A stretch of DNA of 64,000 nt from Eledone cirrhosa (taxonomy: Eukaryota): contig OZ024745.1 in assembly GCA_964016885.1 (NCBI GenBank), forward strand, positions 61,132,001 through 61,196,000, read 5' to 3'. The position numbers and the translations under genes are program-made. This document shows, piece by piece, positions 15,134 to 64,000 of this stretch. The number at the start of each line of letters is the position of its first letter. Position 1 is the stretch's first letter. Below the pieces are notes generated by a model. That model was not told where the DNA came from. It saw only the letters and a program-made list of their open reading frames with translations, and searched no databases.

Positions 15134-60775
<45,642 letters not shown>

Positions 60776-61857
60776 GTAAGTTCATCTTCATTGAAATTGA
60801 ACTGTTTTCAGAAGACATTCTTTTGAATTCATCAAATCACACTTAGAATAGATAAATAGATAAATCAAATACTGATATTTGATTGAAGTAGAGCTTATTA
60901 AATTTTACTAATCTATCTCTGACAAATTTTTTTATTTAAGTGGCAGCATTCCTGTGAGAATTAATTTTCTTTATACATGACAAAAAAAGTACATTACTAG
61001 AAATATACGTTATAAAATAAATAGGATGTGTTGGGGGGGGGGGGGGTCTCAATATGTAAACTAAACAACTAATTATATTTCTTTTTTTTTTTTTTTTTAA
61101 ATCAACGGAAACAATTATCAATCCCCACCCCCATATTATTTGGGACCCAAGAATACTTAAAGTACTTGATTCTATTTTCAGTAACTTTAAATAGATGAAA
61201 ACGACCCTCTTGCAGGCACGATGGTAATCTATTATGTTAAATTTCCTTATCATTTTCTTGACTGTAGATATACTGAAGTCAGAATAAAAAGTCCTTTTGA
61301 GAAAAACAAAGAGATATCTACAACAGCTAGTAGTCCTATATGTTTATCCACTTGGCTAGGAGGCAATTTAATCAACTATACCTCTTCTCTTTACTAAATT
61401 ACTAAAACTGTATGATTAAGAGGACGATAGATTTGCTAGAACGTCAGACAAAATGCTTTACAGTATTTAGTCACGGCTCTTTACATTCTGTGCTCAGATC
61501 TTGCCAAGGTTAACTTTGCTTTTCATCTATCTAGCATTGATAAAATACCAAAATACTAGCCAAGTAGTACAGGGAGTTGTAATAATCAACTTTCCCATCT
61601 CCCTTCCAAAAATTATCTGGCCTTGTGCCTAAATTAGATACCTATATTAATGTAATATGAATAATCTGATACACTTCATTTAAAAAAAAAAAAATCTTCT
61701 TCTTCTGCTTCTCTCTTCTATTTCTCCTTCTCCTTCTCTCTTCTATTTCTCCTTCTCCTTCTTTCTTCTTTTTCTTCTTCTCCTCCTCTTCTTTTTTTTT
61801 AGTGCAGCTCCATGTAGGGAAATGCTTCCTTTGGTGGTGAACTACCTGATTCTGACA

Positions 61858-63052
61858 TCAAAGACCCTTCATGAGCTGCTGCGCCTCCGATACAGCATCA
61901 TTGAAGGCCTGACCTAGGGTTCCGAACCTTACTTTGCCCAGCAGGTTCTTCTTAAACGTAGAGATGAAACTTGAAGGATCCGGATACTGTTCTAGAAGCT
62001 GAACCATTGATTCAGCTAGCGATAATCCGGTGTAGGGGACGGCTGCCTCTTCTACCAATGATACGTCCGGAACGAAGTTGTAGGCGACTTTGAAGGCTAG
62101 AGCGTCCACAAGCGCCTCTTCTACATATCCCGGCTCTATGTTTCTTGAATCAATGAATCTCTTGTCCTTGTTCAGACATCCAATCATTCCATAAAACGTG
62201 TGCAGGTAAGGGTTCGATCCCACAGAGAAGACACACTTATCTATCAGTCCCAAGGACTTCTGATAAGGGAAAATCCCTGTTTCCGAAGCTCCTGCATTTA
62301 GGGACCTCAACATTCTCGTTATTTCGTTCGCCCCGGCTTCATTTATCATTAGGTAAAGCAGATCGGAGATGGTCAAATTAAGAATATTCATGAAGTGATT
62401 CAGAACTTCGATTATGTGCATGCCTTCGTATCGGGCCAGTATAGTTCCTCTTCGCAGTAATGACAAGTCATGTGCATTATAGTTACCTGAAATGATCATT
62501 TTTCACAATATGACTCAGGAAGCCGTTAAGAAGCATATCCTGATCATACCGATAAGGATGTGTCATCCTATAATTGTTAAAAGTTTTTATTATATTCTGT
62601 TTATAGTCGCCGACTTCCAGACTTGTCCCCGCATTTACTACCTTATAAAGGGTGACGATATAAAGTAGTAGTCCGAGATGGTGATTTTGAGTGGACGTTG
62701 TTGCGGTGGGTGTGGGGAAGCTGGAATTCTCGGTGATGGTGAAGAAGTCTGCAGGAGTGACTGTATTCTTTTGTCGAATAAAACTGTAATTCTGCAGATC
62801 AGCATTAATATCGAATTTTAGATAAGACTGGCAATACCTGATCATGAAGTGTAAGATGTGTTTTGGTAGAATTTCTTGTGTGTTTGCCTTGGTTTGAATG
62901 AAGTCGTGAGCCGCGTTAACATCTCCCCCAGAGAAGATGGTTACTTGCTGGGGCTGAAAGGATTCAGAATTAAAAACGTCAAAGTCCTTAGTCGTCTTGC
63001 TAAGGCTAAATTTCAGCTCCTCATGACCAGTGGAATTGGAAGAATTAGACAT
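61858..63052 (-). pseudogene. Endogenous viral element: rhabdovirus-like (Mononegavirales) nucleoprotein N gene, split into two overlapping ORFs (62483-63052 and 61858-62499)
   Basis: Intronless, about 400 aa joined; LLLYIVTLYKV, LRRGTILARYEG, PYQKSLGLIDKCVFSVGSNPYLH and RFGTLGQ are collinear with recalled vesiculovirus N motifs LPLYLLGLYRV, FRYGTIVSRFKD, PYLIDFGLSSKSPYSSVKNPAFH and REKTIGK. Confidence 0.85.
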
Positions 63053-63320
63053 AATGGATTGAAGGATTATAAAGACAACAGTAAAATACGATAAATCCGT
63101 GTTGTCTAATTATTAACATTAAATGTTAATGGTAAGTGTTGTAAGAATAGCTGTGGACGAAGCTATTATGGTAGTTTACCAGAGCTGGCAAGAAGATGAT
63201 GGGTAGGCGAGGAAATGTTGGCCTCCCAGATGTATTGCCGAATGTGCTAGGGAGCTAGGAAAAAATGGCCGGCCGCTTTGATAAGAAAAAAAGCAAGCTG
63301 AGCGATATCCAATTTTAGCC

Positions 63321-63499
63321 GCTTACTACAATGTATGAGGCTATTCCAACAAATTTACATTCCCCTTTTTTTAGCCGTTAAAAGAAATATAGATTTATGC
63401 CGCTTACTTGCTGTAGTTGCTGCTTACTTCAATGTATGAGGCTATTCCAACAAATTTACATTCCCCTTTTTTTAGCCGTTAAAAGAAATATAGATTTAT
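63321..63499. repeat. 78-bp direct duplication (63321-63398 and 63422-63499)
   Basis: CAATGTATGAGGCTATTCCAACAAATTTACATTCCCCTTTT..AGCCGTTAAAAGAAATATAGATTTAT occurs twice. Confidence 0.9.
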
Positions 63500-63505
63500 T
63501 TATTG

Positions 63506-63958
63506 TTTTTTTTTTGCGATTTATTTGCTACTGGGGCATAGATTTCTTTATTTGCCCCTTCTTTGTTTGTTTTTTTGCGATTTATTAGCCTTTTGGGGTC
63601 ACACACACCCCCGTAGAAAGTGTGCGACCTTTCTGCCAGGGAGCACAGAGAGAGGGGGGGTGCTCCCTTCTTCTCTTACCTGTACAAGCCGATATAGAGA
63701 GATGGCCCACTTACACGGGCCATTATTGCTACTTTCACCCATCTTTCATGGAATTGGCTGGGACTGAGTGCCTTTTTCTCCACCTTGATCCTTCTTTCGA
63801 AGTGGTATCGGAAGAAGAGGACCATTTGTTGGCCGGCGACATATCCCCACAGTTTCCTCGTTGCAAACGCATCTGGGACATTTCTTTTCCAAGGGGTTTC
63901 CGTCCCGGAATCCGTGTCTGTAGAGCCTTTCCCGAACGGGCAGGGCCCCTCGGTATAA
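63506..63958 (-). mobile_element. 5'-truncated, internally deleted L1/Tx1-clade LINE 3' end with poly-A
   Basis: Frames not in the ORF track: LYRGALPVRERLYRHG...KCPRCVCNEETV (zf-RVT-like), then FRYHFERRIKVEKKALSPSQFHERWVK...* (stop 63676-63678); AATAAATCGC-A(n) at 63570-63586 and 63506-63525. Confidence 0.75.
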
Positions 63959-64000
63959 TAGTAAGTATTAGTGGTTGTAATAAAAATGCAATCAAAATGT

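Follow-up and report, generated by a model that had tools for sequence, protein, structure and literature searches.

A broken endogenous rhabdovirus nucleoprotein gene joined to an LTR retroelement in a DOCK intron of Eledone cirrhosa

An intron of a DOCK gene of Eledone cirrhosa carries, on the opposite strand, an intronless segment that resembles a gene of a negative-strand RNA virus. The locus raises the question of what this segment is, from which virus it came, by which route it entered the genome, and whether it still does anything there. The window analysed here is a stretch of 64,000 nt (contig OZ024745.1, positions 61,132,001 to 61,196,000), in which a sequence-only reading had proposed a near full-length rhabdovirus-like nucleoprotein (N) gene. 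The minus-strand insert is an endogenous rhabdovirus N gene. Its features are listed below in window positions; siblings are the other N copies of the same genome.

60649..60775, plus strand: DOCK exon upstream of the host intron (TPR_DOCK, E 1.5e-5, with donor site; start approximate, from the profile match)
61685..61791, minus strand: purine-rich simple-repeat tail (GAA/GGA units) followed by a T run, at the downstream junction
61792..61804, minus strand: gene-end-like signal ending in A9, homologous to the N gene end of siblings
61858..62502, minus strand: C-terminal piece of rhabdovirus N with RNA-binding-groove motifs (214 aa stop to stop; PF00945)
62480..62495, minus strand: frame-break site, a short out-of-frame deletion (from alignment with siblings)
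62483..63052, minus strand: N-terminal piece of rhabdovirus N (189 aa from ATG; its stop is a product of the frame break)
63093..63103, minus strand: gene-start-like signal; the same motif occurs in siblings, at two loci between N and P and at a third where N begins
63117..63301, minus strand, same sense as N: internal piece of a 2.7-2.9 kb non-autonomous LTR retroelement (94% to copy L070)
63299..64000, no strand assigned: left arm of a palindromic element, young, 1.8 kb long and in high copy number, that sits within the LTR element and continues to L011 3095

Identity, extent and host intron

The two overlapping minus-strand frames noticed earlier are present as noted (62483-63052 and 61858-62502). 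They overlap by 20 nt, contain no internal nonsense codons, and a frame of at least 200 aa arose in 0 of 2000 shuffles of the N segment. The segment (GC 42.5%, CpG observed/expected 0.79) is richer in GC and CpG than the downstream intron flank (30.4%, 0.33), so the contrast with AT-rich flanks drawn by the first reading holds on that side; the upstream flank, however, is a nested transposon.

In a Pfam profile search the C-terminal piece matches PF00945 (Rhabdo_ncap) with E 1e-17 and 64.6 bits against a cut-off of 26, and in the PDB it matches the N proteins of SVCV, VSV, and rabies virus. The motifs RxGTIxxR and GLxxKxx(F/Y)SxxxNPxxH align residue for residue with VSV and SVCV N. Searched alone, the N-terminal piece found no match in Pfam or the PDB; its identity is 62-88% with sibling copies and 33% with the Octopus bimaculoides protein. 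It is counted as rhabdovirus N because the siblings carry both a PF00945 match, their single open frames covering most of the profile from position 28-47, and a profile-profile match (profile of the N copies against Yongjia tick virus 2 N, probability 98.5, E 3.9e-15).

The sibling frame L017, itself without the gene start, is a natural stand-in for searches and folding, and the comparison with the VSV and rabies N fold was made on it. Its predicted model (pLDDT 86, pTM 0.83), whose underlying alignment included 32 other N-like rows and may bias it towards the family, has VSV, rabies, and SVCV N as best PDB matches (E 1e-12 to 1e-9, TM 0.67-0.76), against TM 0.40-0.48 for N of other Mononegavirales. 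Rhabdovirus N was the top match in both structure libraries searched. Profile match, motif alignment, and sibling fold thus bear out the identity first proposed from the letters of the DNA. The motif KCVFS, which had been taken as a sign of divergence, does belong to a divergent lineage, but as a trait of that lineage: all siblings spanning the motif share it, which rules out decay of this copy.

The insert extends from about 63111 to 61792, slightly wider than the first estimate of 61858..63052. The motif at 63093..63103 resembles what we take to be the canonical rhabdovirus start signal, and a short trailer separates the N frame from the gene-end-like signal. As both signals are present, the insert covers the whole N transcription unit; both were found in none of the siblings whose ends were read.

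The insert is flanked on either side by plus-strand TPR_DOCK exons, and N is therefore antisense to the host gene, as had been claimed. The host intron is 5,075 nt long with GT-AG borders, and the exon ending at 60775 joins in frame with the one starting at window-equivalent 65851. The two exons match neighbouring, partly overlapping TPR_DOCK stretches (profile 185-225 and 201-262). A further exon downstream is closest to DOCK2 and DOCK5, which indicates a gene of the DOCK1/2/5 type. Compared with the PDB, the short DOCK exons gave no match, whereas Pfam and a longer exon did.

Sibling copies and the octopod lineage

With a sibling protein as query, the genome yields 21 matches at 10 N-clade loci, one of them a five-copy tandem array, and PF00945 adds a weak eleventh locus that falls outside the N clade in the tree. 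Together with P-like pieces and four loci with L, these copies answer the earlier call for further viral insertions. Two loci, C4 and C5b, have both junctions in common (92% over 1,760 nt), and C2b shares its insertion with C219, a 92-kb contig that may be an alternate haplotype; about eight captures are thus left.

The tandem array (L066-L067, G000:C28:117.477-117.485 Mb) has a period of 1,796 nt, each unit combining the 5' half of N with pieces of the LTR element that adjoins the window copy. The N copies at L013 4190-5890 and L014 4430-6160 are surrounded by LTR pieces, a polypurine tract, and a 3' UTR, to which they run antisense. They have identical junctions and are one capture that was later copied; they differ by 12 synonymous and nine non-synonymous changes (pS 0.064, pN 0.014), compared with 2.6% in the shared flank. 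Another copy (L022 2280-3630 / L069 6580-10000) is cut off by a sequence that we take to be a Helitron Rep/helicase, although the piece searched had no Pfam match. Weak N and L remnants at L021 1705-2061, L037, and L039 seem to stem from other, more distant mononegavirus lineages, the N piece lying outside the octopod clade.

At two loci, L068 4740-7290 and L065 (G000:C219; C2:47.05 Mb), an intact gene junction leads from N to a P-like ORF, which had no match in Pfam. At L068 the copy terminates in A13, with a direct repeat of some 34 nt on either side. The search with L gave seven matches at four loci (best 496 bits), a lower bound because a stricter first look was used. About 4.8 kb of an L gene at L064 1997-6830 (G000:C3:130.16 Mb) contains stops, frameshifts, and a terminal partial internal duplication; its neighbour, in tail-to-tail arrangement, is a Ty3/gypsy pol with 863 open codons. 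The L and N loci are assumed to derive from the same virus lineage. A genome search for the glycoprotein (G) found no match, and neither did its control.

Among 1.84 billion protein representatives, a search with sibling N gave 184 matches at E <0.001. Among the matches listed, identity is 43-60% for the four best, 52% for a 66-aa piece, and 20-34% for the rest; three of the five closest are O. bimaculoides A0A0L8FVJ3 and Argonauta hians GAB1603531.1 and GAB1610042.1. Two N trees were built, one from 109 of the 150 listed N-like proteins (eight named, plus those of 380-530 aa) and a second of 24 rows. In both, the octopod proteins and the N copies of this genome form one clade with support 100 and a stem of 1.27 changes per column; the sister group of the clade is unstable between the trees. 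The Octopus and Argonauta sequences, at 43-60% identity to the sibling query, are genome-predicted annotations only.

Compared with the PF00945 family (N of VSV, SVCV, rabies virus, and Almendravirus), these loci agree in profile, motifs, two-lobed fold, and length, and in the first place of N before a P-like ORF at sibling loci. They differ in an identity of about 20-34% to non-octopod proteins, the KCVFS-type motif, the long stem, and the broken, host-embedded copy. The Rhabdoviridae have conserved gene-start and gene-end signals and the gene order N-P-M-G-L; observed here are start- and end-like motifs common to several loci and, at two, a second ORF after N. With the best 120 of 219 matches, mostly named alpharhabdoviruses (dimarhabdovirus-type), the L piece shares 45-52% identity, and it scores 448 bits with VSV L and 350 with rabies L, others reaching at most 45. 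A quick-method L tree of 75 rows, with 74 of the 120 listed L proteins and no outgroup, places it on a long branch of 2.3 with no close neighbour.

Searches for a living relative were largely empty. A word-indexed protein search confirmed 0 of 2793 candidates with sibling N and one of 7999 with a 34-row alignment, because N is too divergent for that index; an IMG/VR scan with L gave five pattern matches and a metagenome scan with N gave 37, of which none was confirmed. Judged by its sequences, a divergent lineage tied to octopods and without a named living member is supported.

Rhabdoviruses of molluscs are not new in themselves. Killamcar virus 1 (Uniorhavirus) and Chemarfal virus 1 (Margarhavirus), found in mussels, represent two classified genera, and octopus, cephalopod, and squid do not occur in the available text of that paper (PMC12282299). 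They resemble the octopod loci as mollusc-associated Rhabdoviridae, but the octopod L piece did not group with Killamcar virus 1 in the quick 75-row tree, Chemarfal virus 1 being outside its set. In a gastropod, the dog whelk, a probable rhabdovirus N EVE thought to be endogenous is placed near lyssaviruses by its authors; compared by description, it shares with the present copy a mollusc host and the restriction to N, antisense small RNAs being a feature of the dog whelk (PMC6085071). By its title, Rey-Campos et al. (2023), cited in PMC11097642 and PMC11209166, deals with rhabdoviruses in cephalopods and may already cover the octopod clade or call it endogenous. The suggestion of an undescribed mollusc-infecting lineage has to be qualified in view of these precedents. 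A literature search, with few subscription journals covered, found no description of cephalopod rhabdovirus EVEs.

Between the window pieces and the siblings, pS is 0.81-1.01 and pN 0.08-0.24 in all eight comparisons. Low pN beside saturated pS points to purifying selection in the virus before insertion, and saturated synonymous sites with little protein change indicate that the window copy came from a separate virus; a duplicate of another copy in this genome is ruled out by the same values. Since this saturation extends to every sibling copy tested, divergence does not date the insertion.

The retroelement join and the route of capture

Thirteen nucleotides separate the LTR element from the gene-start signal downstream of it; the element stops at 63117, where intact copies continue differently. 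On its other side it reaches outside the window (L011 3094-3439) with its primer-binding site and a portion of its 5' LTR. The intact copy L070 has LTRs of 446-448 nt that are 98.9% identical, a primer-binding site, and a 4-nt target duplication. At C28 the internal start of the element runs on towards gag- and pol-like sequence, and the pol linked to this family encodes reverse transcriptase, RNase H, and integrase in gypsy order. Within the 64-kb window and the flanks of the N loci, which these counts cover, the family or its pol end occurs at seven of the 10 N-clade loci; with shared insertions counted once, five of eight captures are joined to it directly or within 65 nt. Its single match in the window abuts the N insert, and no LTR match was found at C2b, C2c, and C25 (for C25, in 3.1 kb of sequence).

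Other repeats lie nearby. The palindromic element within the LTR element (window 63299-64000 and L011 1300-3095) is nearly perfect, with arms of 767 nt each that are 98.3% alike; 40 copies scored among 4440 candidates are 96-99% identical, and each arm holds a frame of 146-164 codons with no Pfam match. The ORFs at 63589-63999 and 63676-63999, considered as further viral genes, had no Pfam match and belong to this element. Just upstream of the LTR piece is the 3' end of what we take to be a LINE, with a similar purine-rich tail. Retroelement fragments at 40955-41494 and 47888-48639 are presumably an RTE-like end and two copies of a Penelope-like GIY-YIG region. Three siblings have CRE-like LINE fragments nearby, which were dropped as a capture agent, as they lie 0.7-3 kb from the inserts.

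Template switching by retroelements is a route by which non-retroviral endogenous elements arise. The locus is probably explained in this way, the enzyme and the switch being what we infer from the join. A rhabdovirus would have infected germ-line cells of the host and made N RNA; the reverse transcriptase of the Ty3/gypsy LTR family would have copied this RNA, switching template to (or from) the RNA of the non-autonomous family member; and the hybrid DNA would have entered the DOCK intron opposite to the direction of the gene. The insert would then have lost short stretches, one of which broke the frame, and now be a decayed neutral fossil. After the viral part of the window copy there is no 3' LTR, and the insert has no target-site duplication >8 nt, so an integrase-type insertion is unsupported.

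The main rival concerns this last step. LINE-type target-primed capture is the route of bornavirus N elements in mammals, and here either a polyadenylated N mRNA or a ready LTR-virus hybrid transcript could have been inserted by target-primed reverse transcription. The insert end does coincide with the gene-end A run and is followed by the purine-rich tail without a 3' LTR, the neighbouring LINE-like 3' end has a similar tail, and the C219 copy combines its A13 end with the direct repeat of about 34 nt. The A9 run, however, does not exceed in length the gene-end run that is templated in the siblings, the window insert has no target duplication above 8 nt, and the 5' join is to LTR-element sequence that recurs at other loci, which together make a LINE route unlikely.

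Capture by LTR elements has parallels in Aedes, in which rhabdovirus-derived pieces lie among Ty3/gypsy LTR elements (PMC7161354, PMC7522710); the octopod copies belong to another phylum and are dispersed, one of them in a protein-coding intron.

Inheritance, frame break and significance

Four of the seven listed sequencing runs were compared with the locus; X1-X3 may come from the sample used for the assembly. In run X1 a single contig covers 61806-63177 without any difference, at a depth of 8.5 against 9.8 in the flank, and X2, from the same sample, carries another allele. X4, from another sample, holds an 88-nt piece of the insert at depth 2, and X5, from another study, has raw reads over 62372-62639 with a depth of up to 4.7 and few start points. 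Part of the insert is thus present in all three samples from two studies (S1 whole, S2 as the 88-nt piece, S3 as reads). Contigs of X1 and X2 bridge the upstream, LTR-side junction with 61 nt on the repeat side, while the downstream repeat tract is spanned by none of the compared contigs and the junction there rests on the assembly; linkage to the flanking DNA is accordingly confirmed on one side. Depth equal to that of the flank, two alleles, a second study, and host flanks agree with the germline copy first proposed: the insert is inherited and present in more than one individual.

Near 62480-62495 the window copy is about 32 nt (net) shorter than the five sibling copies whose alignment covers the site, which rules out a one-base shift as the cause of the ORF break, and the deletion falls in a part conserved with VSV N. 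Relative to siblings there are also in-frame gaps at about 62082 and about 62030 and immediately ahead of the stop, which could be strain differences. The second allele differs by two substitutions and a 4-nt indel at the frame-break site in 1,372 nt and, worked out by hand, is likewise out of frame. The window copy is a pseudogene that would make no full N protein, and nothing points to selection on that protein. The low mutational load from which a recent insertion or selection had been argued is not supported, given the deletion in a conserved part, the in-frame gaps, the two alleles, and the saturation that prevents dating. Most likely the locus is a neutral fossil, removed with the intron.

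A use as RNA could be independent of the frame. The insert in DOCK pre-mRNA, complementary to N mRNA, might be cut into piRNA-like guides and kept by selection as an antiviral memory, for which the broken frame would be immaterial. The antisense orientation and the presence of the insert in both alleles seen would fit, and there are precedents in antisense 5'U 28-nt RNAs of the dog whelk element (PMC6085071) and a knock-out test in Aedes (PMC7522710). Yet this is a lone insert in a protein-coding gene rather than an Aedes-type cluster (PMC7161354), the IMG/VR, metagenome, and protein searches found no living cognate virus, and the reading is decidedly improbable. Moreover, antisense orientation is the usual outcome of survivor bias among intronic inserts. 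An assembly artefact or contamination by a parasite or exogenous virus, for which only the unbridged downstream tract speaks, is largely refuted and extremely unlikely given the single-copy depth, the bridged upstream junction, two alleles, and second study, the broken frame within a 134.7-Mb contig of a 3.0-Gb genome, siblings on five chromosome-scale contigs and one small contig, and relatives on 27-Mb and 1-Mb Argonauta contigs.

Rhabdovirus EVEs are a known kind of element, with cases in arthropods and nematodes and the probable one in the dog whelk. What is new is the evidence that an unclassified rhabdovirus lineage of octopods was captured in the germ line more than once, in connection with LTR elements. 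About eight captures with saturated synonymous sites point to a lineage that is long-lived and diverse. A wider reading is possible but doubtful, in which this old, diverse lineage would have genus rank or higher, probably be vertically transmitted, and reach the germ line repeatedly; a single Ty3/gypsy family would capture its genes there and at times copy them further, two loci having both junctions in common, and the inserts, the present one by way of the DOCK intron, would feed a piRNA-type antiviral memory as in mosquitoes. If it is true, part of the 'rhabdovirus' in cephalopod transcriptomes is endogenous. Transcriptome matches of cephalopods to rhabdoviruses may in any case be of endogenous origin, and the locus offers a test of EVE-derived piRNA defence in molluscs. 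The inserts prove from the genome itself that germ-line cells of a probable cephalopod support rhabdovirus replication, which is thus not confined to what the animal eats or to its parasites. Their N, P-like, and L sequences provide queries for living viruses, with a bearing on octopus aquaculture and on the host range of rhabdoviruses.
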